From: Verrucomicrobiota bacterium
Lineage (GTDB): Bacteria > Verrucomicrobiota > Verrucomicrobiia > Methylacidiphilales > JBCCWR01
DNA length: 64,000 bases
Assembly: GCA_039192515.1 (NCBI GenBank)
Contig: JBCCXA010000009.1
Coordinates: forward strand, 925-64,924
Reading direction: 5' to 3'
Shown one piece after another: positions 32,228 to 61,100 of this stretch. A program made the translations under genes and the position numbers. Below the pieces are notes generated by a model, which saw only the letters and a list, made by a program, of their open reading frames with translations, ran no database searches and was not told where the DNA came from. Position 1 is the first letter of the stretch; each line of letters opens with the position of its first letter.

Positions 32228-33154
32228 ATGAATAGATACCTAATAATTGCAATGGCCGCTATGGTCTCGTTGGCGACTGCGCCAAACACATCAAAAGCTG
32301 ATGAATTCTTGTTAACCTTCAACGCTACTCTTAATAGCTATTCTGGACCCGCAGGAGCTGATCCATTTAACCCCACAAGCCTATTAGGGTCGCAAATTGC
32401 TGCCAATCCGGATTTAGGGATTCTTGAGGGCCAATTTATTGTAAAAGACTTTGATGCCAACTTCACAGGCACAATTACGACTGCTACATCAGGTGCCGAG
32501 CTCTTTATTCATTCGCCTGTTCTTGAGCGTGTTGAGGCTTACACAACACGAGTAAGTAGTTCATCTCCTCTCGGAACACCAGTAAATACAAAGTATCTAC
32601 TACCAAGAACCGCAACAACTACCACCACTGATGAAAATGGCCTTACCTCAACAGGATTCTTCGGAACTGCAACAGCGACCTTTGTAAACGGTGAAGTTAC
32701 ATCATTTAGTTACAGCCAGGGTCCCGATACTTTAGCATCGTTTGACTTCCGCTTCGACCCCTTTAGTATCGAAGGTTTAGACATCACCACAGGTGATGAG
32801 ACTGGCTTTGAATTAGTTGGAACTTTTGATCTAGATACGCCTGGCGATGCTGATGCTGTGCCTTACGGTTTCTTCAACACTCTGACACCTGCACCAAGTA
32901 GCACCGTTTTGCAAACAACACGTGGTGATCTAGCAATTGAGTTGGCAGCTGGTGCAATATTAGATGGAAGAGAGAGCAGCGGAGGTCAGCCTCTTGATTT
33001 TGATCCATTAGATGGAACAGGCACACTTTACTATTACGACACGACATCACTTGACGCTAGTCTTGAAGTCGTTCCTGAGCCTAGCACCTATGCTTTACTA
33101 GGTTTTGGAGGTGCAGCTTTATTTGCTCTTAGGCGGTTTCGTCGTCGCAAGTAA
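32228..33154 (+). CDS. PEP-CTERM surface protein
   Basis: Signal peptide. C-terminal VVPEPSTYALLGFGGAALFALRRFRRRK. Confidence 0.9.
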   Translation: MNRYLIIAMAAMVSLATAPNTSKADEFLLTFNATLNSYSGPAGADPFNPTSLLGSQIAANPDLGILEGQFIVKDFDANFTGTITTATSGAELFIHSPVLERVEAYTTRVSSSSPLGTPVNTKYLLPRTATTTTTDENGLTSTGFFGTATATFVNGEVTSFSYSQGPDTLASFDFRFDPFSIEGLDITTGDETGFELVGTFDLDTPGDADAVPYGFFNTLTPAPSSTVLQTTRGDLAIELAAGAILDGRESSGGQPLDFDPLDGTGTLYYYDTTSLDASLEVVPEPSTYALLGFGGAALFALRRFRRRK

Positions 33155-42630: not shown

Positions 42631-44544
42631 TTAACTAGAAGAAATAAAGATGTTATATCTTTCCAGTAAAGTGCCAGCAGTCTCAAAGAGTCTGATATAG
42701 GCCTTGTTGAGATCAACAGTTGCTGCTAGCTCCCGAACTTTAGCTTTATGAAGATCACGTCTAAACTTAAAAAGAGTATTTTCAGTGGTGAGACCTTTTT
42801 CAAGGCGTATTTCTTCCTCTTCATAGGAACGTTGAGCATTGGCATGAAAGAGTTGCATGGCCTCAAGGCGTTCTCGGTTAGATTCTATGATGGCAATAAG
42901 TTGTTGAAAGGCCAATGAGGTTTGTAGTTCGAGATTTTTTAGTTCTAGTATACTTTGTCTCTTTCGGTGTTGTGCTTCGTGCTTGCGACCAATGGCTTCG
43001 TCATTGCCGAGGGGAATGGAGAAGACCGCTCCGACGGACCATTCGGAGCCTTGACCTCCGAAAGATCGCGTGTAGCTACCCCCAATGCTAGGAGACAAGC
43101 CATTTATTCCGTAGGTGCCTTTAAGATCGAGTTGAGGCCAGACCTGGTTCTCGGCAAAAACGAGTCTGATATCTTCTCGCTCAACTTTTCGTTTAGCGAT
43201 TTTATATGCGGGGCTCGAGCTGAAGGCCTCGGCAACCAGATTGTTATAATCTAGATCAATATGGGGGATGATAAGCTTAGTTGTTGGAATAAAGACTGAA
43301 GTTCTATTAGGTGTGGGGTGGTTAGTCGTGAGAATTTGAAGTTCGGTCTGTTTGGCAAAGACTTCATTACGAGCTAGGACTAGTTCTTCAATGACTTCGG
43401 CAAGAGTTGCTTCTGCTTTATTGAGGTCGCCGGGGGAAACAAGCCCTTTTTCGAGTAGTTCCCTTTTTTCTTTGGCTAACTCAGAGGCTAGATCTTGCTC
43501 AAGCTCCTTGAGCTTTAAATTTCTCACGTGATACATGAGATCAAAGTAGGCTTTTAAGGTTTCGCTAACTGTTTCGAGCATAGCTGCTTCTAGCTCGAGC
43601 CTAGAGATCAATTTGTTTTTTCTAGCAACACGGATTTCTGCGAGGTTTACATCTGTTCCAAAATTACGGAGTAGCGGCTGGGTAAGTGTCATCCCGGTAA
43701 AGGTGCTATATTCTGGGCTAAATAAAGAAAGAGCGCTTTGCTGGGGACCTGACTCAATCAAGGTATTTCTTAGAATGTCTTGTTTAGTAAAGAGATCATA
43801 TTCAGTGCCCGTAGGGAGTTTGCCCTCTAACGATAGTTCATAGCTCCAGTTTTCTTCAGTGAAAATACGAGGATCGCTACTTAGAATAACTGCATTACCA
43901 CCACTACTAATAAATTCCTCGGTATTTTGAGGAGTACGTATCTTTTCATACTGTCCTTCAAAGGAGAGCTCGGGGTTAAATCCCCCAATCTGTTGTCGAA
44001 GAACATCTTGGGCGATGGAGATATCCAGTTTCTTCACTTCAACATCTAAGTTTTTTGTTAGAGATGAAGAAATAGCAGATGGCAAGTCCAGTGTAATTTC
44101 TGGCAGAGCTTCTAAAGTTGGGATTTTGTATTCATCTTCCGAGGAACTAGATGAGCCGTAGTATGTCGGCAAAGAATTCGGAGGCACGGAATCTGACTCT
44201 GGGATATCAGGTGGTGAGCCTGTAGGGGATTCGTTCAGTTCGGTTGTTTCTGTGGTTAGAGTTGGCTCTGTATTAGAACTGACAGCATCCAGGCCATCCG
44301 GCTCAAAAGGGTCGTCGTCCGAGCTAGTAGTGGTCGTTGTTGTTGAACTACTGGTGCTAGCAATCAAGCTTCCTGCAAGAAGCGCATGTTTCTTGGCTAG
44401 TGGAGACTCGAGTTTAGCAACCTGAGTAGAAGAGGATTTAGAGCAACCGACAACAACAACAGCAAAAATGAAGCTAGAGAGCAAAACATATATGCTCGTT
44501 ATCTTTAGTTTATTTTTATTTCCAAGCATGACATTTTTTAACAA
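42631..44544 (-). CDS. TolC-family outer membrane channel with long Ser/Thr/Pro-rich N-terminal extension
   Basis: TLTQPLLRNFG, AENQVWPQLDL, WSVGAVFSIPLG and heptad helices. Lipobox-like VVVVGC followed by a low-complexity linker. Confidence 0.88.
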   Translation of the reverse strand: MLKNVMLGNKNKLKITSIYVLLSSFIFAVVVVGCSKSSSTQVAKLESPLAKKHALLAGSLIASTSSSTTTTTTSSDDDPFEPDGLDAVSSNTEPTLTTETTELNESPTGSPPDIPESDSVPPNSLPTYYGSSSSSEDEYKIPTLEALPEITLDLPSAISSSLTKNLDVEVKKLDISIAQDVLRQQIGGFNPELSFEGQYEKIRTPQNTEEFISSGGNAVILSSDPRIFTEENWSYELSLEGKLPTGTEYDLFTKQDILRNTLIESGPQQSALSLFSPEYSTFTGMTLTQPLLRNFGTDVNLAEIRVARKNKLISRLELEAAMLETVSETLKAYFDLMYHVRNLKLKELEQDLASELAKEKRELLEKGLVSPGDLNKAEATLAEVIEELVLARNEVFAKQTELQILTTNHPTPNRTSVFIPTTKLIIPHIDLDYNNLVAEAFSSSPAYKIAKRKVEREDIRLVFAENQVWPQLDLKGTYGINGLSPSIGGSYTRSFGGQGSEWSVGAVFSIPLGNDEAIGRKHEAQHRKRQSILELKNLELQTSLAFQQLIAIIESNRERLEAMQLFHANAQRSYEEEEIRLEKGLTTENTLFKFRRDLHKAKVRELAATVDLNKAYIRLFETAGTLLERYNIFISSS

Positions 44545-44596
44545 CCCGCGAAAGTCTTTCAGATTCGCAAAGGCTTGTCAACTTTTGCTGGTTAAC

Positions 44597-46573
44597 CTAG
44601 ACCGCAGAAGATTTCCCGGAAAAGGATAGGTTTTCGTCTAACCAGGTGTCATGTTTCAGAACACGCTTTCTTGTCTTAAAAGCCATGCTTGAGGCCATCC
44701 ACTGAGCCCATGCGAATAAATGAATAATCCAACTGGGCAAAGGTTTAGGTAAGGTTCCACCCACAGCTTTTAAGAGAGAAAGTGGTAAAAACCGTAGGGT
44801 TAATTCGTCGTTAATAGATACAATAAACCGGGCGCTCCCAGGATCTCCTTGTCGGCCTGATCTACCAATGAGTTGTCTATCAATGCGAGATGACTCATGG
44901 ATCTCAGTAGCAATGACGTGAAGTCCTCCTAATTCTCTCACTCCGTGTCCGAGCTTTATATCTGTGCCACGTCCAGCCATGTTTGTGGCAATGGTTATCC
45001 GGCCAAGTTGTCCGGCTTTAGAGATAATTTGAGCTTCGTCTTCCTGCCGGAGGGCATTGAGGATTTCGAATTGTAACCCCATCTTACTGAGATGTTTGGC
45101 CACCAACTCGCTGCTTTGAACAGACCGTGTGCCGATTAGGAGGGGGCGATCCTTTTGATGCAATTTTTTTGCCTCGCAAGCAACAGCTTTCCATTTGTCG
45201 TTCTGAGAGGCAAAAATTTGGTCAGGGTATCTTTTGCGTAATGCAGGGCGGTGTGTAGGAATTTTTAGGACTGCTAGATGGTAGATTTGCCAGAGTTCTT
45301 CCTTGGATTCATATGCGGTTCCAGATAGACCCGAGAGGTTTGGATAACAACGAAAAAATCTTTGAAAGCTCATAGAAGCTATAGATTCATTAGGAGGTGT
45401 GATTTCTACGTTTTCTTTAGCTTCCACCGCTTGGTGCAATCCTTGTTGCCACGTGCGATGCTCCATAATCCGACCAGTGAATTCATCTATGAGTTCTATT
45501 TTTCCCTCGTTTATGGCATAATGAACATCTTTTAGATAAAATTCTCTTGCAATTAAAGCGGTACGAATGAGGTCGTGGAAGCGCTCCCTGTTTCGCCAAG
45601 CAGCAGGGAGAATCGAAGCTTTGCTAAAGAGTCGATCATTAATTTGAGATACGATACTGATTTCTCGGAACTTGAAATCAACCTGATAGTCTTGACCACG
45701 TTTTAGGGGTGCAATCAGCTTTTTAGCGTGAATACTGGCTGATTCGAGATCTTTATTCCTGACGCGTTGTGAAATAATAAGTGGTGTCACGGCTTCGTCA
45801 ATGAGGACGCTATCTGCTTCATCCACAATGGCAAAATGTAAACCACGCATGACTACACTTTGATGGCGGTTTTGTCTTTTTGCCAGATTACGAATCAGGC
45901 GGCGAGTGGGGTCATAGGGAGTACTTAAGGCTATACGATCTCTTAAAAAATCAGCTAAAGCTTCTTTTGGTGTAGTGTAGGTGATATGTGCTGCATAGGA
46001 TTTCTCGCGCTCATTAGCAGGCATGTGACCAGTGACGGATCCAACCGATAAGCCGAAAAAACGGAATAAAGCCTCCATCTCTTGACTGTCGCGTGAGGCT
46101 AAGTAATCGTTGGCTGTAATGACATGGCAAGGTCTACCTGTGCTTCCCATGAGAGTAGCAGCTAGTGCGACAGTAAGTGTTTTCCCCTCTCCGGTGGCCA
46201 TTTCAGCTAAATATCCATGGAATAGGCTGGCCGCACTAGCAAGTTGAACCGGGTAAGGACTTAGTTGTAGTGCTCGCTTTGCTCCGAGAACTAGCATAGC
46301 AAGACCTTCTGCTACGGCTTTATCTGTGGCAGGGAATTTGAGGAAATGAAGGCGCAGGTTTTTTAAACGGGATACAACCTCTTTGTCTGTAATGGACTCA
46401 TTTCGCTCAGCTATATGCTGAGCTTTCTTAGCTAATTCTAAAAAGTATTTTAGTGAACTTTTGCGGCGCTTGTATTTACCATGGAGTGAAAAAATAAAGG
46501 CATCAAGGCCTTGATAGCTTTTGCATTTTTCACTTGCTTTGAGCCGCCAATAATCTAACTGGAAATTTGACAT
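44597..46573 (-). CDS. Truncated SecA-like DEAD ATPase (NBD1-PPXD-NBD2 only)
   Basis: EMATGEGKT, TANDYLASRD, IVDEADSVLIDEA, GLHQAVEAKE, ATNMAGRGTDI and RIDRQLIGRSGRQGDPG. The protein ends about 70 aa after NBD2, so it lacks the wing domain and two-helix finger. Confidence 0.88.
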   Translation of the reverse strand: MSNFQLDYWRLKASEKCKSYQGLDAFIFSLHGKYKRRKSSLKYFLELAKKAQHIAERNESITDKEVVSRLKNLRLHFLKFPATDKAVAEGLAMLVLGAKRALQLSPYPVQLASAASLFHGYLAEMATGEGKTLTVALAATLMGSTGRPCHVITANDYLASRDSQEMEALFRFFGLSVGSVTGHMPANEREKSYAAHITYTTPKEALADFLRDRIALSTPYDPTRRLIRNLAKRQNRHQSVVMRGLHFAIVDEADSVLIDEAVTPLIISQRVRNKDLESASIHAKKLIAPLKRGQDYQVDFKFREISIVSQINDRLFSKASILPAAWRNRERFHDLIRTALIAREFYLKDVHYAINEGKIELIDEFTGRIMEHRTWQQGLHQAVEAKENVEITPPNESIASMSFQRFFRCYPNLSGLSGTAYESKEELWQIYHLAVLKIPTHRPALRKRYPDQIFASQNDKWKAVACEAKKLHQKDRPLLIGTRSVQSSELVAKHLSKMGLQFEILNALRQEDEAQIISKAGQLGRITIATNMAGRGTDIKLGHGVRELGGLHVIATEIHESSRIDRQLIGRSGRQGDPGSARFIVSINDELTLRFLPLSLLKAVGGTLPKPLPSWIIHLFAWAQWMASSMAFKTRKRVLKHDTWLDENLSFSGKSSAV

Positions 46574-46584
46574 CGGAAGGGTAG

Positions 46585-48738
46585 TTACAACTTGAGTCTG
46601 TCTTGAAGAACTTGCCTGATCAATCTCCAGCCTTGTTTGAGTAATGGTTCGTAACCAATATGAAAGCGAATTTGTCCTCTACGGTGTTGGACAAAATAAA
46701 CATTTTCTTGATTCTCAAGCTCTGCATAAATCATAAAGAAAGGCTCTTTGCTTGTAACCCCCTGAGGATCTTCTTGTGAAACTTCGATTTCACCACCACC
46801 ACCCCAACCTAGAGCGGGTGAAGGCAATGCTTTCTGCTCTCCGGGAATTCGAATCATATTGAGCACTTCAATTTCTTTACCAGCTTGACCTATCAGTCGG
46901 ACTGAAGCACCGCGTATCGATTGAAAGAAAACATCCGCAGCTTGTGGTTGCTCTACGATAGCAACAAAGCGATAGCTAGTAGGTTTGAGGAAGACTCCGA
47001 TTGGGGTGCCCTTGTGAAACCAGGCGCCGATTTGCTGGTCTAATTCAGGGGCGGCCCAAACTCCGTCATAGGGAGCTGTTATATTGAGGCGTTCTTTTTC
47101 CTCCAGATAGAATTTTAGATTTTTCCGTGCGCTTTCCAGTTTAAGCTGGACGGGTTTGATGCGAACATTTTCTTTAAAGGCTAGATTTTGCAAGGTAGCC
47201 CTAGATGCGCGTATCTCGGCCTGAGCTTGTTCAATTTTCCAGTCTAGTGCTAAGTCGCTAAACACCATGAGCTTATCACCTGCCTCTACTTTGGTGCCTG
47301 GACGCGTATAAACTTGCTCTAAGCGACCAGAGGTAGGCGCAAATAGCCGAAGGAATTTATCAGCTTCTACCACCCCGTGTGCTCTGGCATGCAGTGGAAA
47401 GGGTATAATGGCCAATAGGGTGATCGTGCCTACGAGAATTGAAAAAACGATGGTCAGGGCTCGGTTTCTAGTAGCGTCTAAGCCCGGGTCTGTAAACAGA
47501 TAGTAAAAAAATTTGTACAAAGGCATAGCTAACCAAATAAATGAAGTGATAGCTGCTAAGACAATACCTAGCCCAAAGAATTGGTCAGCCACGATGAGAG
47601 CAATACTCGTTAATAGAAAAATACGATAAAGGCCTGCACTTATTCCATAGATAGCCAACCAAATGCTTTCCGAGTTAGATTGTGCAGCAGGGAGCATGTG
47701 ACGGCATTTAAAGATAAATTTTTCCAAAAGGTATTTCAATTGCTGGTTGGAGCGTTGAGACATATTAGGGATTTCGATAAGGTCTGAGAGAATGTAATAG
47801 CCATCAAAACGCAAAAGAGGATTTATGTTAAATAAAAAGGTAGTGATGGATGCGATGACCATCAAATTATAGGCCATGGCATTCATAGTGGTATCCGAGG
47901 TATTGGCCCAAATGATGACAGCAATAGCTGCGAGGAAGAATTCAAAGATCATTCCGGCGGCTGCGACGTAAATGCGATTCCATTTACTGCGAAAGCCCCA
48001 ACTTGTTGTAGCGTCGACATAGGGAATGGGTGTGAAGATTAGTAACATGACACCTAACGTGCGCACTTCTCCTCCTAAGACCCGGCATATCAAACCATGA
48101 CCGAGTTCATGCCAAAACTTTGCAATCACACCACAGAGATAGAGCAGGAAAAGGTTTCCAGGAGATAGAAGGCCCTCTGTTTGATCAAGCGCAGCGTCCC
48201 AGTTTTCAAAGAGTTCTTTAGCTCCTAGAAAAATAACAATGGACCAAAGGATCATTCCCCAACGATTTAAGAGAGGCCTGAAAAAGGGAAGCAGTGCATT
48301 AATAAATGGAGTAGGGTCACAAAGAGAAATTTTAATAAAGAGGAAATTAAGAAATTTGCTTCGTAACTCCTTATGTTCTGCTTTACGGCGTCTTTCTGAC
48401 ATAGCTGAGACATCAGGAGGAAAGTCGGAGTGAATGAGGTTACCCTGTGTCAATTGGGCAAGAAGTCGGACGACTTCTTGCTGTCCGGGCGTTTCATCAG
48501 GATAAATTTCTAAACATTCATTCCAGACTTCTTCGATTGTTCGTTCGATTCGTAGTCTAGCTACAAAATGGTAGCCAGCAGGAGAAAGACGGAAGAATTT
48601 ATTGCTAAATGGTTCGCTTAAAACATACCAAGGCACTCCTCTATAGCTTTGACGTTCAACTCGAACACTGGGATGTAGCTGCGCACTACGACTAGCAATA
48701 CGGTGCCAAGACTCACTGAATAATGAACTCCGATTCAT
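46585..48738 (-). CDS. M50 (site-2 protease) membrane protein fused to an HlyD-like adaptor; PqqD/RRE-like N-terminus
   Basis: HELGH and NINPLLRFDGYY motifs, several TMs, and a C-terminal barrel-sandwich (APTSGRLEQV...ITAPYDGVW). Confidence 0.85.
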   Translation of the reverse strand: MNRSSLFSESWHRIASRSAQLHPSVRVERQSYRGVPWYVLSEPFSNKFFRLSPAGYHFVARLRIERTIEEVWNECLEIYPDETPGQQEVVRLLAQLTQGNLIHSDFPPDVSAMSERRRKAEHKELRSKFLNFLFIKISLCDPTPFINALLPFFRPLLNRWGMILWSIVIFLGAKELFENWDAALDQTEGLLSPGNLFLLYLCGVIAKFWHELGHGLICRVLGGEVRTLGVMLLIFTPIPYVDATTSWGFRSKWNRIYVAAAGMIFEFFLAAIAVIIWANTSDTTMNAMAYNLMVIASITTFLFNINPLLRFDGYYILSDLIEIPNMSQRSNQQLKYLLEKFIFKCRHMLPAAQSNSESIWLAIYGISAGLYRIFLLTSIALIVADQFFGLGIVLAAITSFIWLAMPLYKFFYYLFTDPGLDATRNRALTIVFSILVGTITLLAIIPFPLHARAHGVVEADKFLRLFAPTSGRLEQVYTRPGTKVEAGDKLMVFSDLALDWKIEQAQAEIRASRATLQNLAFKENVRIKPVQLKLESARKNLKFYLEEKERLNITAPYDGVWAAPELDQQIGAWFHKGTPIGVFLKPTSYRFVAIVEQPQAADVFFQSIRGASVRLIGQAGKEIEVLNMIRIPGEQKALPSPALGWGGGGEIEVSQEDPQGVTSKEPFFMIYAELENQENVYFVQHRRGQIRFHIGYEPLLKQGWRLIRQVLQDRLKL

Positions 48739-48754
48739 ATTTTCTGATTGTATC

Positions 48755-50176
48755 CTAAAGCCACAATTTTAATCTTAAGAAATCAATAAGGCGATGGGTC
48801 ATCATGTAAAGGGGAGGCTTGGTGCCAGCATTGATTTTGACAATACCTGTCATGCCTGGGCGCCACCATTCATCCGGTGGACATTCGATGCTGCAGCGAA
48901 CATAAAAGACATTTTTTTTGTCGCGAGCAACTGCACTGGGCTCGATGAGTCTCACGGTGATGGGGTACTTGATTTCCGGGCGGCTCTTAAAAGCAATAGC
49001 TCCATCAGCTTTGACTAGGACTTCTTGAATATCCTCCTCTGGGATCATTGCTTGAGTATAAAGGTCTTCTAAACGGGCGATTTTCATAAGGACATCACCC
49101 TTTTCAACTGGAGCACCAATTTGTTCAGTAAGAGCTCCTTCGACGATGACACCGTCAAATGGGCTCACGATTTTTGAACGGCTTAATTTATAGCGGGTTT
49201 GTTTGAGTTCTGATTCAGACTGAGCTGCTTTAGCTGTGGCTATATGCATGTCACCAAGACTACTTTGACCAAGTGCGACTTGGGCTTCGCTTCGGTAGCG
49301 TTGCATAGTAGCCATGACTTCACTTTCTTGGAGTTTAAGTTCGCGAGTATCTAGGGCAATGAGTGGTTCCTCCTTTTTTACTTCCTTACCGGGAATGACA
49401 TGGACTTCTTTGATGTAGCCTTGGAAAGGAGCGGGTAGGTTGATGAGGGCATCCGTTTTTAAAATAAACTCTCCACTGACTTTGTAAGGCCATGGGTATA
49501 GGCATAAAAAAAGAAGCACGATTGTAACGAGTAGGCCCCCAAATTTCCACCATGTGTGTTCTGGTCCAAGAACGGTAGCCAACCAGCTGCGTGTTTTGTT
49601 CTCTCCGAGAAACCACCAACCTCTAGCGTATTTATGAAGTTCTTCGAGCCTTGGTGTAACTAGGTCACAAATTAACCGAAGTGCTTCTACTTCTGTTTCT
49701 TTAAACTGCGCGTTTTCTCTTTGCAAAGTGAGTGTACCAATGACTTGGGAATTTATTCTCAACGGCATTGACAGCATATTTGTTGCACCAAATTTTTGAT
49801 GAAAGTTTTGATGTTCTCGAGTGATGGTGAGTTCGTTGTCTTTAGTGGGCCAAACAACATTTTCATCTTGATCGGATGCTTCCAGCATTACCCGTTCGAG
49901 TTCTTGTGCGATCTCAGTTCTTTTTTCGATTTTATTTGAGTGACTTGTTGCTTTAAGTCTCATTTCATCGTCTTGCAAGCGGCCAATAGAAACACGTGTA
50001 CAACGAAAGTGAAAAACCAATTCATTGCAAAGAGAGAGTGCTGCGTGATCGTACCGACTACTTTGGTTGAGTAACGAGATCAGGTCCAGGGTGATCCATA
50101 GAGGTCCTTCTGGCATTTGATTATGCGTCTTAGAGGGCAATGAGGATGTTGTTTCAGACTCTATACTTTCTGACAT
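48755..50176 (-). CDS. GAF-domain / HlyD-family periplasmic adaptor fusion
   Basis: N-terminal GAF-like region (LSMPLRINSQVIGTLTLQR), one TM, then LPAPFQGYIKEVHV..G..V and IVSPFDGVIVEG. Confidence 0.85.
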   Translation of the reverse strand: MSESIESETTSSLPSKTHNQMPEGPLWITLDLISLLNQSSRYDHAALSLCNELVFHFRCTRVSIGRLQDDEMRLKATSHSNKIEKRTEIAQELERVMLEASDQDENVVWPTKDNELTITREHQNFHQKFGATNMLSMPLRINSQVIGTLTLQRENAQFKETEVEALRLICDLVTPRLEELHKYARGWWFLGENKTRSWLATVLGPEHTWWKFGGLLVTIVLLFLCLYPWPYKVSGEFILKTDALINLPAPFQGYIKEVHVIPGKEVKKEEPLIALDTRELKLQESEVMATMQRYRSEAQVALGQSSLGDMHIATAKAAQSESELKQTRYKLSRSKIVSPFDGVIVEGALTEQIGAPVEKGDVLMKIARLEDLYTQAMIPEEDIQEVLVKADGAIAFKSRPEIKYPITVRLIEPSAVARDKKNVFYVRCSIECPPDEWWRPGMTGIVKINAGTKPPLYMMTHRLIDFLRLKLWL

Positions 50177-50283: not shown

Positions 50284-51039
50284 ATGTTCATGCGATGGAA
50301 TTTGATATGGTTGATCAGCTTCTTTGGGGTAGTGGAGACACAAGCGCAGAAGTCAGATTTTAAAAATAGCTTAGGTATGTTGTTTGTGACAGTTCCGAAC
50401 ACAGAAGTTTATTTCTCTGTCTATGAAACAAGCGTAAAAGATTATCAGGTTTTTGTAAAAGAAACGAAGCGCACAGTTAAAAAGCCTTCTTTTAAGCAGA
50501 ATGGGAATCATGCAGCAGTCAATGTCAGCTGGGAGGATGCGAAAGCTTTCTGTTACTGGCTAACGGCAAAGGAGAGAAAAGAGAAAATTATCTCAGCTAA
50601 ACAGTATTATCGATTACCCAACGATAAGGAATGGAGCTTAGCTTCTGGGATTAAGGGTGCAGCAGATGAATTCTCTTTCGAAGATAATTTAGATTTTGAA
50701 TATCCTTGGGGAAAAGAATGGCCACCGCCCCCAGATGCTGGAAATTACAGCCCTGATTTGTTTGTAGATAACTACTCCCATACCTCTCCGGTAGGCAGTT
50801 TTAAGCCTAACAAACTTGGTATTTATGATCTTGGAGGCAATGTTTGGGAGTGGTGTGAAGATATTTTTAATCAATCTCCAGATTATCGAATTCTTCGAGG
50901 GGCCTCCTGGCGTATGCGTTTGCCAAATGACCTTCTCTTGACCAATAAAATCGGTAACCGTCCGGACCTTAGGCTTTCCGTGTATGGCTTCCGAATTGTT
51001 TTGACGAAAGATAAAAAAGAAGAAGACGCACTTCAGTAG
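50284..51039 (+). CDS. Exported FGE-sulfatase (SUMF1/EgtB/PvdO) domain protein
   Basis: VNVSWEDAKAFCYWL, YRLPNDKEW, YPWG, PVGSFKPNKLGIYDLGGNVWEW, GFRIVL. Confidence 0.88.
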   Translation: MFMRWNLIWLISFFGVVETQAQKSDFKNSLGMLFVTVPNTEVYFSVYETSVKDYQVFVKETKRTVKKPSFKQNGNHAAVNVSWEDAKAFCYWLTAKERKEKIISAKQYYRLPNDKEWSLASGIKGAADEFSFEDNLDFEYPWGKEWPPPPDAGNYSPDLFVDNYSHTSPVGSFKPNKLGIYDLGGNVWEWCEDIFNQSPDYRILRGASWRMRLPNDLLLTNKIGNRPDLRLSVYGFRIVLTKDKKEEDALQ

Positions 51040-51838: not shown

Positions 51839-52139
51839 TATCTAAAACCGCAGAAGGTCAATAGTTTGTTCAGTAAGCATGCGATTATTGTATTTTTCAT
51901 AAATTAATATAATTACAATAATGAAATAGAATTTATACATAAACTTTAGCATAGTTCGATGATGATTGGAGAGTTGAAATTAATCCAGTTTTATCTGATT
52001 AATACTTGATTATAACAGTGCTGTCTTCAGAATCAAACAAGTCTTTGGTTGCGAAAGACTGTTAATGTTGGGAGGGTTTAGATGGCAGGAATATTACCTG
52101 TCATCGTATCCCTATTTATACCAAAAAGAGGTAATAAAT

Positions 52140-55100
52140 ATGGCTAAGACAAAAACTAAAAATCGGAATCGCTGGAAACAACCCCGAAAGCACAAGAAAA
52201 TCCCAAGGCATCTGCAATATGATTTGCAAACATTAGAGCCGAGGCTTTTATTTTCTGCCGCCTTGTATGATCCTGGAGATGGCGGCGGTTCTGGGGATAG
52301 TGATGTCGCAACGAATATAGAAACGCAGTTAACGGATACTTTTACTTTTCTCGGCAAGTATGCAGACGAGATAGGAACCGAAGAGGCAGCAGATTCCTCA
52401 GCAGTTCCTTTTTTCCAATCAAGCGTTGAGGATTTATTAGGTTTTGAGATTGAAGACTTTTTAAAGGGTGGGTCAGGTAGTGATGCATATAGCCAAGTAG
52501 TTGATGACTACTTTGACAATGCGAGTCCGGATTCCACAGGCCTTGCTGCTGACCTACAGAGCGCAGTGCAGAACACCTTTGGAGTTGGATCTGTTACGGA
52601 TACAGGCTCGGACAATGATAATCTGATATTAAATTTCTCTATCGATCTGAATGAAGTTACAAAGGACCTAAAATTTGGCACCGAAGCTCAGGAGTTTTTC
52701 TTAGAATATGGAGCAGGTGCCCAAGTAAAGTTTAATGCGGATGCCATAACGTTCTCTATTAAAGCTGATTTAAGTGGAGTGGATAATGTGGCAACAGATG
52801 AAACAGATAACTCCTCTAACGATAGCCTTTATTCAGTCGAGTTTGGTGGCAGTGATAAAGACACGTTATCTATAATGGGTTCTTCGAGTCATACCAATAG
52901 TCTAGATCCCTTAACCGGATTTGGAGTTGGTTTTGGACTCATTGATGCTCGGGATGATGTAATGGACTCGGGTGGTTATGTTGCTAACACAGGCGGGACT
53001 TTCTCTTTTAATCTTCAACTTGATTTTATCTTGGAGAGTTCTTTGTCTGCTGATAGTAAGCTCAGTCTGGATGAGCTCAGAGCAATTGATACTGCTTCAT
53101 CATATGAAAGCATCTACAGAGTGGATACTCCAACCGGTGCGGGTGTTAATGAAGGTGAACTCTTTTTACCAATCCAAGTAGCTAACCCAGCAGGGGATGA
53201 GTTTATTAGCGGTATTGATGGTATCACCGGAGACTTTACCTTTACCGATAACGATCTTTTTGATAGCCGTTCACCCTTGGTTCAAGCAAGTGATCAGACA
53301 TTAGCTTCTTTTTCGAGGATGACTGCTGATGATCTTTTACAGTTTGTTAAAAACGCTACCTATCTCTTTGGTCAGAGTTCAGATCTAACAGAGATGCAAA
53401 ATTTTCTTCCATTACTTGATCTTAACCTGGGCCAAGCGTATGATTTCCTGGAGGCTTCAGAAAAAGCATTAGTTGATCCTTTAGTCATCATTGAGAATGT
53501 ATTACGCATCAAAGATGCGCCATCAACAAGTGGTGATCCACTTGATTACACGGGTAATAGTAGCTTTCAAATTTATGTCTTTTACCAAGGTGTCTTAGAA
53601 GGTGGTGCCTTGCAAATCATTACTCTCAATGCGAATAGCTCCCGTGCTTCACTGCAAGATGTTGCCGATGACTTAAATATTGCGCTCGCTGCCGCTGCCG
53701 CAGGGACCCAAAGAGTCTTCGCACGGGTAACCGAAACCGCTTCTCCTCGGCTAGAGTTGTATGGTGTAGATGCGGATACGACCTTCTTCATTAGTAGTGT
53801 GAATCCAAGTGGAGAAACATTAGATCTTGGTATTGATCCTTATGGACTGGTCTTTGCTCGAAACAATGGAACGATCTCGAGCAATCAAAATGAGAAATAT
53901 CAGCTACAAGAAGTTAAGGTAGAGTCTTCCACCGCCATAGAGGTAAGTCATTTTACAACACTAAAGACTTTTACTGTAGCAATTGGCTCTGACAGCGCGA
54001 CCACCATTACTTTGCCTCCAAGTGTTTATGGCTCTATGGCAGATTTTGTATTTGCCTTACAATCGGCTTTAGCGGAGGCTGGCGTCTACGATGCGAGCAC
54101 GGGCGAGGGAATTGAGGTGGATGAAGCTACTTCCGGGGATAGTCAGGGCTTCGGGGTAACTTTTTCTATTAGTGGTTCTCGTTCAGGGGAAACACTAACG
54201 CTTGGGGGTAGTGATGTGGGGATTTTCCAGTTAAGTGCGACAAGTGGAGCGAGCTCCTATACCTCGGCAACTCCTGTAGAACTCTCTCCTTTTGAGTCGG
54301 GGTTATCTCTGACTATTTCATTCAGCTCTCAGCAGGCTGGGCTATTGGCGACAACTACAGAGACTATTTCGATTCCCGCAGGAAAATATGCGTCCGTCGA
54401 TGATGTGATTTTTGCTATTCGCGAAGCTCTTCAAAGCAATGGTCTTTATGATGCTTTTACGAATACGGGGATATTGATTGAGAAGATTCCTGTGGGTGGT
54501 GGCGAAGGTATACGTTTTTATACCTCGGCAGAGGTTTATGAGCTAACCATTTCTACCTCTAGTAATAGCCTCATAGGATTATCCAGTACGAGTGAAAGCG
54601 CTACGGCGGCTTACATTGATATTGATGTGAAGCAAGATGGCAATGCATCCGCAACGACTACTCGAGTTTACATCAATGGCAACACAACGACAGATCTTTT
54701 AGGAAATTCCACCAACACCTCTGTTTCAGACTTTGTTAGTGATGTGCAAAGTGCTTTGACTCGAGCAGGTTTAAGGGACTCTCTTTCTGGAACTGGAGTG
54801 GATATTCGCTCCTTTGACCAGAATGGGAGTTCAACTGATTATTTAGAATTCTTTGCATTAAATCCAGGTGCCGGTTCTGGCTTTATCCAAGAAATTTCGA
54901 CTGGAGCTTCTGCTTCATTTGGTATGGATGACTATAACTTAGATGGATTGGCTGCCCAAGTAATGGCTTTATCTGCCGAGGATCAAAAACCTCGGTTTAG
55001 TAATGTGCAAGAATTTGTCGCGCTCCTTAATCAATCTACGGGATTACCACAGGTCAGTGTGGACCTTAATGGCTCCGCTGATGGTGTGGAGATCAGCCGT

Positions 55101-58100
55101 TGGTCTGCAAATACGACCAGTGTTGAGGTTACAGGTGGAACCGGGAAAGGTTTTCTCAATTTAGATGCGGATTTAGTAGATAATGCTAACACAGAAATCA
55201 CTTCATCCAGTGCTGTAGATCTAAGTAACTTTACGGTCGATACGACCTTATTCGTTTCTGTAAATGGGGCTGCTGCAGTGACAGCTACCATTAAAGGAGA
55301 TACATATAATTCTATGGCTGATTTAGTGGACGCTATATCCATAGCGCTACGTGAAGCAGGGTTGGCAGATGGTCTTCTTTCCTCCCCTGCAGTCTATAAT
55401 GGCGGGGACATTGTCAATGGGGTCTCTCCTTATTTCACCTTTCCCATCCACCTCTACGTAGACGAATACTTTGGGGATGAAGGGTTGGCAGATCTCACTG
55501 ATGTCGATATGCGATTTGAGTCCAGCTATGGAGAAACAGCGACGGGGCAGATAAGTAATCTATCAGCCGAAAAACAAGTCACGGTATCCCGCTCCTCAGA
55601 AATTAGTTTTGATTTGGGCCTCAATTTAATTCAGCCGAAAACAAGCAGTGAGGAGCTTGTCGTAGAACTACCCGTTATCATTCAAGACTGGGATGGGCAG
55701 CTTGATTCGTACGATGCTCTCTTTAAGGTGATACTTGACGATGGTGTGGTACACGACGTTCTCGTTTTAGCGAGTGATACGGCTCTTAACACAAGCACAG
55801 AAGACTTTGTTGCGAATATTAATGCCGCACTGAGTGCAGTTGATATCGGTGGTGGAGTTATGCTTAGCTCGCTGGTAGTAGCTTCTTTGGACATGGTCAA
55901 CGACTTTGAACGAGATGTGATTCGCTTCACAACCGTGGCGGGGTCAAGTCGTAGCTTAGCAGTCGAAGTTCCTGAATACATTTCAGAAGATACGACCTAT
56001 AATAATGATGCTGCCGTTAAGTTAGGTTTTACGACGAATGTTTCAACAGGTAATCTCGATGATTTTGATGTATTAGCGGGTGCTACGCAGATCGATGCTT
56101 CAGGAGTTCTTCCCAACAATCCGGATTATGATGTCTACTACCGCGTTAAGCTAGAGGACTCAGTTACGGGGGCAACAGATGCTTTTGTCTTTTCAACTAA
56201 GGCTACTGACACTTCGGGTAATACGAACCTAGCCCAGTTGATTGTTGACATAAACAATGCCCACAGCTCTGTAGATTTTGAGGCATTTGATAATGGAGGA
56301 AACTTAGGGTTCCAAATTCTTGGAGTAAATTACGATATTATTAGAGTTGATGTGGCTAAAAATCAATACTTGGCTACGGAAACAGACCCCATCATTGCCG
56401 ACAACCCCGTTGATGTAAGCGATTTTGTTCTAGCTACGGATGCATTTTTTGAGTTTATCCTACCTGATGGAACCAGTCAGATACTGACCATTGAAGTCGA
56501 GGACACAACAGATAACGCCAGTTTAGATGACTTGGTCAATGACCTCAATCAGGCGATCCAAGCAACTTCCGCCCTCATGGACAATGGGGTTTATCAAAAG
56601 ATTATCGCCTTCATTGAAGGCGTTGGGGGTAATAATCATTTAGCTTTCCGTTTAGATACGACAAATGTCTATCCCTCTGGTGGTGATTGGCGTATGACGG
56701 TCATTGCTCAATACAACGAGTCTGTTACGAATGCTGCAAGCTTTGAGCTGGCAATGGCGGAAGAGACTTATCGTGACACAAGGTATGCATTGATCGGACC
56801 TATTATTGGAAGCTTAGCTGATGCAGACAGTATTTTGGTTAATGATTTTCTATTGGATATTTCAATTAATGGCTCAGATTATGAAACAGTTACGGTTTTG
56901 GCCTCTGACACCTCGGCAAATACCAGCATTGGAGATCTCATTGCAGACATCAATACTTCCCTGGCTAATACTTCAATTACCGTGGCGGGCAATAGCTACA
57001 CGGTTAGCCAATTCATTGATGCTATTGCTTTGAGTGGAGGAGATGTAGTCCAGCTTGCAGTTAGGGATGATGCACCTGTGCCTTTGCTTAATGTTCGTTT
57101 TGATCCAACTACTGATTCTAACAATGGCTATATAGATTTAGGCTTTTCTTCAGAAGAGTCACAGATAGGTATCCGCGGTTCTGATGCCACTCTCGATAAT
57201 ATTTTCTTAACTGGCCGAGCGGAAGTTAGAGATGCAGACGTAAGTGGAAAAGGTTCCCTAGGTTTTGCAGATTTCAGCTTTGATCATACCGATTTTGATG
57301 CCATTACCGAAACAACTCTAGGACTCACTGGCAATATGACAAGTATGCTGGATTTAATGAGATACCTAGGGTCTTATGAAGCTGAGTATAGCGCAGTAGA
57401 GATAGATCATAGCCTAACCATTGAAGACGATACTTTTGCAAGAGTAGAGTTTCAGGATCTGGCTTTCTTGGAAGATAGTGTTACGGAAAATACTCTAACT
57501 GGCCTAACCTTTGATCCAACAAGCACGATAGTGCTTGCCTATCAACCTAATGGGAATGGGGCCTCTTCGAGCATAGGAGTAGGTGGCTCGGATTTATTCA
57601 AACTTCCTGAAGCTGACCTTTCTTTTAATAACACAAATGACATCGAGTTAATCAGTCGGCTGACTTTTGATGACATTGCGCTTTCTCTCTGGCATGTAGG
57701 GGATTTCATCAGTGACTGGATGAATAATGATCCTAATGGGCCATTTGCAGCTAATCTCTTTTTTGCCAAGACGGGAATCGTTGATGTTCAAGATTTTGGG
57801 GAAGAATTCAGCGCCATCATGGCGCAACTATGGGCTAATCCTCCTGAAAATTTACAGGAGGTACAGCGCGCTCTAGAGTCTGGACTAAACTTAGATGCGG
57901 GGGATGTGACGGTTGAACTGGTGACATCTGGAAGCGGTTCCACTTTCAATGCGAGTTTACGTGTGGCATTCGACTTCATCACGACCTTTGCCTCAACGCT
58001 TCCCCTTTACATTGATCTGGCAATGTTATCGGATCGCAGCTCTAACTCTGGCTTAGTCAAGCAGAGTTTACTAGGTCTCTCTTCATTATCGAGTAGTTTG

Positions 58101-61100
58101 TCTGATCCCATGGAAGTGGAGTTGGAGGGACTCTCTAAGCTCCAACTAGATATGGATCTTGTGCTAGTAGAGAACGGAGAAGTTATAGAACCAAAGGCTA
58201 TCCTGAATCAACCAAATTCAGGTGAGTTTTTTGAAACGAAATTTTTTGTAACTGGAGATTCGTACACAGGAGACCTTCCTGCCGGAGCTAACCGACTTAG
58301 ACTTGGTTACAGCTGGTTTGATGAGACAGGACGTGAAGTTCTAGCCCCTGACACAGGAACAGCCCCTGTTGGTGCAACTGTTGCGACGACAGGCGAGCTC
58401 GCAGCTACTTATGATGATGCAACAGATAGACTTACTTCTACGAGTGTCGGAGCCCTTGTCGTAGATGGAATCACGCTTACAGAACAAGGAAGCGACGGAG
58501 CACCTGGTGATTATGTCCTTGTAAAGGACCAAAGTGATCCTACGCAAAATGGTCTTTATGAAGTGATCGAATCTGGTGATGGCGCAACCGCTTGGATACT
58601 AGAACGCACTGATAGTGATTTGTCCTGGCTCAAGGTCAGTGTGAATTCAGGGTCTATCTTTGGGGACCGCATCTTCATGGTGAAAGATATTTCTAATGTT
58701 GATGTTGTTGCTGCTGCCACGACCTCTGTAGGAAATTCTTACAATCTTCAGTCATATCCTTTCCTCAATTATATTGATGCAGGTTCTAGCTTAACCATTG
58801 ATGGAGTGACCCCTGAGCATGGGGACTTTGTTTTACTTACAGGACAGCAATTGGGATCAACGGGTGCTCCTAATGGAGTTTATCAGGTTCAGATCAATTC
58901 AGGTACTTATGAGCTGTATCTTATGGACATTGGCCAAGGGACTATTGGGCAAGCGGATGTCACGGGTGGCTCTCTTGCCGGGAATTCTTATTTTGTCGAT
59001 TTCAATAATATTACAAACAACATTCAGCAGCGCGGTGTTGCAGAATTGACACCTTACAACGTTGTAGAGCTTCGCTCAGCTGCTGTAGCCGTGAGCGAAG
59101 GTGGAGAGGTGGCTTTACCAGATGTGAATGGCACACCGCAAATTTATGATACTGACGAAACGACTCTGGATGAAAATGATATTCCTGCAGCAGACTTTAC
59201 AGTTGAAGTTTCTACAACTGAGGAAGTCGCTGGTACATTTAGCGGCGGCACCATCACTTTGAATGTATTGTCCGCCCCAGTAATAGATGGTGTGACTTTA
59301 GCTGCAGGTGATTTGGTCATGGTGAATCATCAAGGGGATGGCTCTCAGAACGGTATTTACCAATTAACTGAATCCAGCGGAATTTGGACTTTAACTCGTG
59401 TGAGTACTTATGATGATTTATCAGATACCCTTAATGTAAAGGTCACGGTTGCTAGTGGGACGACATATGGCGGTTTCGAATTTAAAATGGCGGAGACAAT
59501 CTCTGAATTTAATGCCTCAATTGTTCGTTTTTCTAAGTTGATAAAGCCTGCTTCCTTTATCATCAACTTATCTGATTTTAATGGGACGAAAGATAAACAG
59601 CTCCCTTATCATGCGGTAGCCGCTTCTACATCAGATCTTTTGGTGAGTGCCGATGGCAGTTCGACTGCTTCTTTTGATTTATCAACGGGAACCATAACAG
59701 CAGACCAAAATGGCTCACTCAATCGCTACGTCACTCAAGTTTGGGACGAACAGACGGGGCAAGTGATTAATATTATCGGTATTGATGGGGTGACTAATTT
59801 ACGAGTGGGAGATCGAGTTTTGTTGAAGGATATTGGTCGAACCGAGCTCAATCCCTCAGGAGCTAGTTATGGTTCCTACACCGGTGATTATCGAAATGGT
59901 ATTTACGAGGTGGTATCTTTGGGAGGCAGCACCTCCCAATGGGAGTTAAAGCGCGTTGATTTTGCCGACGAGGCCTCTGAATTTGACCAGTTGAAGATTG
60001 GGGTTCAGCGTGGTAGCTACAATTTAGATACGCGTTATATTCAAACACTTTTTAATCCTCTCAGCTTAGGTGCAGGAACGAATATTGGATTCACGGATGA
60101 TATTGCTTTTGTTTATGGGAACTACGATAGTAACGGCAACTTAGTTGGTAGTTGGGTTGATTTTTCTGCTGACGGAAATGCGGCCGCCGCACTTCCCTTG
60201 AGTGTTGTCATGGTTCCATCTGGTGGCGGAGAGACGGTGATTACCAAAAACCTGGCTAGCCTAACTGATGATGAAAAAGAGGCACTAGGTCAACTTGGTG
60301 AAGCTATTCTGGAAGATGATCTTTATCTTGCGGCACCAGATCTAGATGCGTTGAAAATCTTTGTTGCAGATGATACCGATGCGTCTGACGATGGATTTGC
60401 TGGTTCTGGCCTGGAGAAATTTTTCGATACTTCAGATATAGCGGTGACTTTTGATCCACTACCGGATTTATTTCGCACGGTACCTCCCTCGGACGTACTT
60501 TCATTAGTTCGAGATTGGGTTTTTATGGGGGATGCATTAGATCTCGCCTTGTTTAATCTTCAATTTGCCATGGATCAGGCGCTAGGTATTGAGGTGCCTT
60601 TGCTCGGAACCAGTCTGCCTAGTTATACCGGCTTTATCGAGGAGTTTCGAGACGATTTAACAACCCGAGTACGTGAGAATTTGCGCCTAGACACTTTAAA
60701 GCCTGCCAATGCTATCCGCGATGCTCTCTACGCCGCACTTGGACCTAATGGTCTGGGGTATCTCACAGATATCACCGATATTGTGGTAATGGCAGGCGAT
60801 ACGGTTTGGGATATTGATAATACTTCGGATACGACTTTTTATGGGACAACGGCTGAAGGGCTCTTGTTTGAGAAGGTGAGTCAGAGTTCACTAGAGTTTT
60901 CCTTTAGCATTAGTAAGTCTTTGGATACTGATGCAACAGCAGTGGCGATTGACTCCATAGAAAGTGGAGATCAAAGTATCGGGCTGTCTATATCCAATAG
61001 CACGGTTTCTCAAAACAGTGACGGGGTGGTGACATCGACTACGGGCGGTGTTCAGCTCAAACGTTCGTTTGAGCTTAATTTTGGTTTCGGTATGGATATC

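Follow-up and report, generated by a model that had tools for sequence, protein, structure and literature searches.

The chromosome of a Verrucomicrobiota bacterium (order Methylacidiphilales; GenBank assembly GCA_039192515.1) encodes a protein of 5,837 residues that contains four copies of a module known from the surface of phage virions. The stretch of DNA analyzed, called here the window, has 64,000 nucleotides (nt) (contig JBCCXA010000009.1, positions 925 to 64,924, forward strand), and coordinates refer to it unless the contig is named. Sequence profiles and the predicted fold show the four copies to be homologous to one another and to the viral module; they are carried by a chromosomal protein without prophage context, not by a structural protein of a virion. 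We think it probable that a phage-type module was captured, multiplied within the gene and now provides structural beads of an exported protein. That a cell and viruses have surface components in common is real in this case, but it is not unprecedented.

Four divergent copies of one module

The block of copies spans residues ~2100–2670 of the giant protein (58362–60074, plus strand), within a single open frame that extends from 52065 to 63998 and beyond the end of the window and that holds all four. Each copy is a compact module of ~85–105 residues. Copy R1 (residues 2100–2215, 58362..58709; hidden Markov model envelope 2105–2212) abuts R2 (residues 2212–2325, 58698..59039). A linker of 52 residues (59040..59195) leads to R3 (residues 2378–2485, 59196..59519), the most canonical copy and the one that was modeled, and a linker of 29 residues leads from there to R4 (residues 2515–2670, 59607..60074; envelope 2563–2667). 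An earlier note on this DNA, made from the sequence alone, had recognized four divergent copies with IDG, GD.V, and NG.Y elements at 58370–59970. The copies and the start of the block are as given there, but the end lies ~100 nt further, at 60074.

Eleven columns are invariant in R1–R4: D30 and G31 (IDG), G37, D38, and V40 (GD.V), N51, G52, and Y54 (NG.Y), L65, V84, and G87. The K, Q, W, R, and D of the motif are retained in R1 and R4, partly in R3, and are largely absent from R2, the most degenerate copy, where the K, W, and R are substituted. R4 has an N-terminal extension and an insertion of ~20 residues between the K-D and NGIY elements; two insertions in R4 are shared by its orthologs. 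The alignment separates the modules into a short subtype (TLSG.QTIDG ... AGAW--TRATD) and a long one, which has one more hairpin at the N-terminus and the sequence W-[VE]-L-T-R. R1–R4 all belong to the long subtype (W-x-L-T-R), which is present among outside homologs as well.

All six pairs of copies match each other in BLASTP, with E-values from 4e-16 (R1–R3, 38% identity over 100 residues) to 3e-4 (R2–R4) and identities of 26%–41% over the BLASTP-aligned stretches. With 100 shuffles, five of the six pairs outscore every shuffle and the R2–R4 pair merely equals the shuffle maximum. The same copies are found by a profile of 81 proteins from elsewhere that contains no sequence of the window (E-values scaled to the 19,651 six-frame open reading frames [ORFs] of the genome). 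This outside-only profile matches the whole giant protein at 2.7e-30 and, individually, residues 2126–2207 in R1 (1.8e-7), 2239–2281 in R2 (6e-3, the N-terminal half only), 2400–2481 in R3 (1.6e-13), and 2572–2661 in R4 (5e-3). A six-frame search of the 3.7-Mb genome with a profile including the four window copies gave no further ORF at E<10.

Relatives in phages

Among the PHROG families, the block matches 2647 (“head decoration”), 24595 (“virion structural protein”), 30390, 17264, and 11518 and 8745 (tail fiber); phrog_2824 is a further member of the same module family. The best E-values per copy are 9.8e-10 for R3 (phrog_2647, followed by phrog_24595 at 3.6e-9), 2.4e-9 for R1 (phrog_30390), 1.3e-5 for R4 (the tail-fiber family phrog_8745), and 2e-4 for R2 (phrog_2647). 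The consensus of the 81 outside homologs, QTIDGV...AGDRVLVKNQTTAS.NGIYVVAAGAWTRATDAD, is nearly the string that the earlier note had quoted for viral structural proteins, and the resemblance to them is confirmed by the matches to PHROGs, phage records, and PDB sequences.

A tblastn search with R3 retrieves tail-fiber genes of Synechococcus phage BUCT-ZZ01 (47% identity, 3e-6) and of the marine Methylophilales phage Melnitz. The BUCT-ZZ01 fiber has a single canonical copy, SVRAATTANITLSAPQTIDGIALVAGDRVLVKNQTTASQNGIYVVQAGAWTRS, at residues 781–865 of 1,168, with which a search yields 158 phage records. These are annotated as tail fiber, tail protein, capsid decoration protein, or virion structural protein, and the hosts include Ralstonia, Gordonia, Vibrio, Rhodococcus, Mycobacterium, Synechococcus, Prochlorococcus, and Xanthomonas. 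In metagenomes, a word-indexed search gives more than 1,300 short proteins, many of them named “phage-related tail fiber protein” or “head decoration protein.” In a library of 1.84 billion representative proteins (clusters at 50% identity), the profile search finds 3,538 at E<=1e-3, and many proteins carry two to 16 module copies in tandem.

The module occurs also in sequences of the PDB. Chain A of 9nx3, a “capsid decoration protein,” matches at 3e-7 a profile from which 9nx3 itself is absent. The match is identical, over 76 compared residues, to the C-terminal region of the 1,151-residue gp235 of Bxz1/Catera-type mycobacteriophages; the 9nx3 chain corresponds to the last 242 residues only of this Bxz1-type protein. 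A literature search on 9NX3 and on a Bxz1-type capsid decoration structure found no paper. The second entry, 9efk, matches at 7e-9 in residues 263–370 (of 658) of orf22. It is the portal–tail complex of Legionella phage LME-1, where the tail fiber consists of six trimers with distal parts not modeled (PMC12407071).

Prophage examples are the loci L020 and L021, from a metagenome-assembled genome (MAG) of Burkholderiaceae. There, 240-residue proteins with the module, named “head decoration protein,” are encoded directly upstream of lysis genes near an integrase, one of them adjoining a phage lysozyme and an integrase, and begin with a coiled coil like those of YadA stalks or T7 fibers. The “head decoration” annotation may be wrong here, given this coiled coil and a gene position that is the usual one of a tail fiber.

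The module is widespread yet uncatalogued, and no Pfam or NCBIfam model covers it; in the canonical phage carriers, the Pfam scan likewise leaves it without a model. COG5301 (“phage-related tail fibre protein”) probably has this family as its core, a link that we in part presume. Product names of the Joint Genome Institute among the metagenome homologs point to it. So does a remark in one paper on orf66 of Gordonia phage GMA4, a structural protein confirmed by mass spectrometry (PMC4524720).

Predicted fold

The AlphaFold2 model of R3, computed from an alignment of 85 sequences, has a predicted local distance difference test score (pLDDT) of 90.1 and a predicted template modeling (TM) score of 0.83. 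It is a self-contained globular domain, with N-terminal beta-hairpins, then five more strands and one short helix. For the whole block of 571 residues, single-sequence AlphaFold2 gave an unusable model (pLDDT 35). Compared by Foldseek with the viral models of BFVD (predicted structures against a predicted structure), the R3 model has 83 matches at E<=1e-3, with TM scores of 0.6–0.87. They include uncultured Caudovirales proteins that also have Stf repeats, Mtd N-terminal domains, collagen repeats, or S74 chaperone domains, the tail fibers of Synechococcus phages S-SCSM1 and S-CAM9, and giant-virus proteins of Indivirus, Marseillevirus LCMAC201, Mimivirus LCMiAC01, and Fadolivirus. Both groups named in the earlier note are represented, the marine myoviruses by sequence (Synechococcus phages and Melnitz) and the giant viruses by fold. 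The outcome that would have refuted the earlier note, relatives among generic bacterial immunoglobulin-like (Ig-like) or beta domains only and none in viruses, is not what was found. A likeness to SH3-like or PUA-like barrels is faint (SH3-B_UBE2O, E 0.2; RsmE chains 1z85, 4j3c, and 2egv with query-based TM scores [TMq] of 0.31–0.40 and E>1).

The giant carrier protein

The full gene (C9:52989–70502 on the contig) ends 6.5 kb past the window and encodes the 5,837 residues; the start chosen by the gene caller is 25 codons later (P0002, 5,812 residues). In the translation, a very basic leader is followed by LEPRLLFSA, a motif of the LEPR-XLL type (residues 55–67; 52227..52265, plus strand). The LEPR-XLL model NF012209 scores 13.5 bits on the protein, against a model cutoff of 17, and the orthologs P0003–P0006 have LEPR[YMC]LL at the matching N-terminal place. 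The C-terminus has an acidic, Q-rich tail and then a hydrophobic segment, both shared with the full-length orthologs P0004 and P0006. By eye, the N-terminal 2,000 residues contain many repeats of ~100 residues with the motif S..DLV..IN.AL, and the last 1,900 residues contain parallel beta-helix-like repeats before the acidic tail.

Pfam scans of the giant protein (residues 1–3978 and the last 1,937) match no family; neither an Ig-like nor any other curated repeat family is found on any repeat or on the whole protein, and NCBIfam gives no usable match on either. In the PHROG scan of residues 1–3978, the module block is the only matching region. No collagen, Stf-repeat, Mtd_N, S74, or coiled-coil fiber element surrounds the block (Pfam on the whole protein, PHROGs on residues 1–3978). 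A curated adhesin repeat was considered and ruled out: the Ca2+-stabilized tandem adhesin repeats of NF033510 score 16 and 12 bits against a cutoff of 50, and no Pfam family is present. The description of the carrier as an adhesin, proposed at first, is not supported, the protein having no Pfam match at all. The block is the sole handle of recognizable homology on this “dark” protein of 5,837 residues.

On the minus strand, divergent to the giant gene and upstream of it, lies an export locus (42631..50176) with, according to Pfam, a TolC-like outer membrane efflux protein (OEP; 42631–44544), a short SecA-like ATPase of 658 residues (44597–46573; SecA_DEAD, PP_bind, and P-loop), an M50 protease–HlyD fusion (46585–48738; Peptidase_M50-HlyD), and a GAF–HlyD adaptor (48755–50176). 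From these neighbors and from the features of its sequence, we infer export and surface anchoring of the giant protein and a connection of the export locus with it. An enzyme of the formylglycine-generating enzyme (FGE)–sulfatase type is encoded directly upstream of the giant gene (50284–51039, plus strand). On its 3′ side (L017, C9:70400–82400) are a dehydrogenase, two sulfatases, an OEP, and an AcrB-type pump of the resistance–nodulation–division (RND) kind. The sulfatases and the FGE-type enzyme would fit the lifestyle of a marine, polysaccharide-degrading member of the Verrucomicrobiota. No phage genes occur among the flanking loci on either side (export, sulfatases, dehydrogenase, RND pump). 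Over the block, base composition and GC are uniform and unremarkable, and the reading frame is unbroken.

Orthologs and history of the block

Orthologs of the giant protein in independent assemblies (P0003–P0006) are 42%–57% identical to it over the block and have four to five copies at the same position. One of them (P0005) is labeled Methylacidiphilales, and a fragment with 72% identity comes from a Verrucomicrobiota MAG. A search with the ortholog alignment (A4) matched two loci; a search of genome contigs with the single protein R3–R4 gave no match. In the order, seven of 40 other genomes, from six genera, have the module, always in open frames of 706–7,185 residues and nearly all above 1,500; in a sample of the phylum, it is found in five of 300 genomes. 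One genome of the order (G005, contigs C7 and C36) has two module-bearing frames, of 6,020 residues with ~4 copies and of 4,909 residues with ~11, so that copy number is strongly variable within the order. Within this order of Verrucomicrobiota, a family of chromosomal genes for giant proteins has the block as a constant component.

These data bear on whether the likeness could be an artefact, either by chance or composition, as a prophage remnant, or as an assembly chimera within the ORF. Only the weak matches of R2 and R4 to the outside-only profile and the R2–R4 pair that does not exceed its best shuffle could be read in that way. With the profile values of R1 and R3, a fold match reaching a TM score of 0.87, the same architecture in four independently assembled orthologs, and an uninterrupted frame of uniform GC without flanking phage genes, an artefact is extremely improbable. 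Chance similarity, a prophage remnant, and a chimeric assembly were each rejected on the profile E-values, the architecture of the orthologs, and the flanking genes.

In a tree of the modules (244 rows, 105 columns), the R4 copies of all five orthologs form one starred clade, and R1, R3, and the R2 of three orthologs fall in a clade composed of giant-family proteins only. The copies were therefore present before the orthologs split, and at least R1 and R3 come from duplication inside the gene. A search of IMG/VR with R3 gave two distant matches (38%–53% identity over 30–50 residues), and nothing in the sequences suggests a recent transfer.

A second carrier family was noticed outside the window. 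In P0007–P0013 (2,470–2,560 residues), the halves of the module are arrayed apart: ~11 N-terminal halves in tandem (ATT.ALPAN..IDGV.LA.GDRVLVKNE..ANNGIYTVT), the eleventh being a full module, and then ~9 C-terminal halves in tandem (W.LTRA.DA...L.PGD.V.V..G..N.G.T.Y.S). P0011 is encoded among housekeeping genes on a contig of 191 kb, which makes this second family a cellular one.

Direction of transfer

The earlier note had proposed that a virus-derived module was recruited by a cellular protein or that the flow went the other way. The distribution agrees with the first proposal: the viral spread is very wide, covering phages of at least three bacterial phyla and the nucleocytoplasmic large DNA viruses, whereas the cellular spread in the phylum is patchy, as given above. 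For this reason, capture from phage is probably the more economical direction, a moderate preference over the reverse. The repeat phylogeny (244 modules, 105 columns) does not settle the direction.

Flow from cell to virus would mean that the module was born in giant surface proteins of cells and repeatedly captured by phages and giant viruses. The best matches in the search of 1.84 billion proteins are indeed long and have up to 16 copies, but a summed-score search ranks multi-copy proteins first regardless of their origin. There are also at least two unrelated cellular families in chromosomal, non-prophage settings, the giant family and the family of P0007–P0013 with ~2,500 residues. Set against the wide viral and the patchy cellular spread, this flow seems to us improbable.

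Structural bead or binding module

The history that we favor would begin with the ancestor of the giant family capturing one module, most likely from a phage fiber gene. Further copies would then have arisen within the gene; copies 1 and 3 and the copy 2 of some orthologs make up one clade. The giant protein would leave the cell through the neighboring SecA-like/HlyD/M50/TolC machinery and be held by its C-terminal hydrophobic anchor. In the extracellular stalk, the four modules would act as independently folded rigid beads, presumably the job that the module has in phage fibers.

The fibers of phages bear on this role. The module is found at residues 169–259 of 554 in ORF23 of RSA1 (Ralstonia), 47–136 of 312 in PVA1 (Vibrio), 227–346 of 711 in S-SCSM1, 370–479 of 648 in Melnitz, 263–370 of 658 in LME-1, and 781–865 of 1,168 in BUCT-ZZ01, i.e., mostly N-proximal or mid-chain and away from the C-terminal tip. 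The motif is near-identical in phages of Actinobacteria, Proteobacteria, and Cyanobacteria. It is usually the C-terminal tip that binds the receptor, and receptor-binding tips of phages evolve fast, unlike the conserved motif of the module. A structural bead is favored because the module lies mostly away from the fiber tip and because the motif is conserved across unrelated hosts. On the same two grounds, the suggestion in the earlier note of a binding module for host or prey surfaces is not supported as the primary role. Beside a structural role, a weak generic contact with ligands, for example glycans, is possible, as proposed for Ig-like domains of phages; it is not our main reading.

A stronger version would have the four modules work as a ligand-binding, lectin-like array through which the cell attaches to other cells, to particles, or to polysaccharide. 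In capsid decoration proteins and in fibers, the module is exposed on the outside of virions, and tandem copies would give avidity. Conserved D, N, Y, W, and R residues are typical of sugar-binding sites and are conserved in the module; several motif residues, however, are missing from R2 and changed in R3 and R4, and no lectin or carbohydrate-binding family was matched in Pfam, in NCBIfam, or by Foldseek in the PDB. The neighboring sulfatases and FGE-type enzyme point to a polysaccharide-degrading lifestyle, and the MAT fibers of Bdellovibrio are an instance of cells that use phage-like fiber proteins for target recognition (PMC10769870). The position of the module mostly off the distal tip, and a motif conserved over phages of unrelated hosts, run contrary to host-specific recognition. 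Taken together, we regard such an array as unlikely. Somewhat less likely still is that the block confers phage-like recognition as such, either as an array that binds glycans multivalently or by imitating, within one chain, the three-fold ring of modules in a trimeric fiber. If recognition were the role, the bacterium would attach to the surfaces of algae, particles, or other bacteria with a virus-derived device, and a viral domain that is very common yet uncatalogued (3,538 clusters at 50% identity) would be a new class of lectins.

Several observations weigh against captured structural beads in an exported protein. The polar and aromatic residues conserved in the module (D, D, R/K, Q, N, Y, W, R, and D) could equally line a ligand site, and a role as a stalk is harder to see for the capsid decoration proteins that also contain it. 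Export and surface anchoring of the giant protein are deduced from its neighbors and sequence features alone. The tree has no resolution of the direction of transfer, with 140 of 241 inner branches unsupported (105 columns) and the seven labeled phage sequences scattered, and the top matches in the library of 1.84 billion proteins are long multi-copy proteins that may be either viral or cellular. In the PDB, Foldseek with the R3 model gives no match at E<0.1, the top ones being baseplate chains of Pa193 and E217 (TMq 0.36); neither of the two sequence-matched entries, 9nx3 and 9efk, is among the fold matches, and for 9efk the absence goes back to the distal tail fiber of LME-1, which is not modeled in the paper (PMC12407071).

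Comparison with known systems

The closest system is the family of phage virion-surface modules itself. The window copies have its motif (IDG..L..GD[R]vLvK.Q....NGiY.V...W.[L]tR..D....V.V..G.), its length, and its predicted fold. The difference lies in the carrier, here a chromosomal protein of 5,837 residues with a LEPR-XLL leader and four copies per chain.

Ig-like domains (Big_2, I-set, FN3) are reportedly shared by phage virions and bacterial surface proteins. The parallel is close: a small beta domain is found on unrelated phage capsids and tails, and in tandem in large bacterial surface proteins. The Ig-like domains of phages are presumably accessory and mobile between phages and cells. 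The present module differs from them in fold and family and lacks a curated model; for Ig-like domains, structures have been solved and there is some evidence that they bind glycans. With the present module, a third fold joins the few that phages and bacterial envelopes have in common as surface modules.

The MAT proteins of Bdellovibrio bacteriovorus are chromosomal and phage-fiber-like, and form whole trimeric fibers whose tips are diverse and which in some cases have S74 chaperones (Caulton et al. 2024, PMC10769870). They, too, are bacterial surface proteins built from phage-fiber-like parts and encoded in the chromosome outside a prophage, and so form a precedent for cellular re-use. In the giant protein, by contrast, just a block of ~570 residues is phage-like within a much larger and otherwise unrelated chain, and Pfam finds no Peptidase_S74, coiled-coil stalk, or fiber repeat of a MAT-like architecture.

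As for the carrier, a locus with a secondary SecA, HlyD, M50, and TolC and with giant LEPR-XLL proteins has reportedly been described in a computational study. The carrier resembles that system in its LEPRxLL N-terminus beside a SecA-like/HlyD/M50/TolC locus. The likeness concerns the carrier, not the module, and NF012209 stays below its cutoff. We know of no report of phage-fiber modules in LEPR-XLL proteins.

Sharing of modules between phage fibers and cell-surface proteins is already established, and no new mechanism is indicated. The module is an abundant one, in 3,538 protein clusters, at least 158 sequenced phages, and also giant viruses, and it is without a Pfam or NCBIfam model or matching solved coordinates. 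What the giant protein adds is that such a module can move out of virion proteins and become fixed, in several copies, in an otherwise uncharacterized cellular protein.

Other features of the window

The linker between R2 and R3 contains ELRSAAVAVSEGGEVALPDVNGTPQIYD (residues 2338–2365; 59076–59159, plus strand), which among the five orthologs is better conserved than any other part of the block. Mean identity over the five is 0.87 in the 15-residue bin at residues 2341–2355, against 0.4–0.84 in bins within the modules. Judging from this conservation, the stretch may be a functional site in its own right. Elsewhere in the window, a protein of 308 residues (32228–33154, plus strand) ends, by eye in the translation, with a PEP-CTERM-like sorting signal (VVPEPSTYALLGFGGAALFALRRFRRRK).

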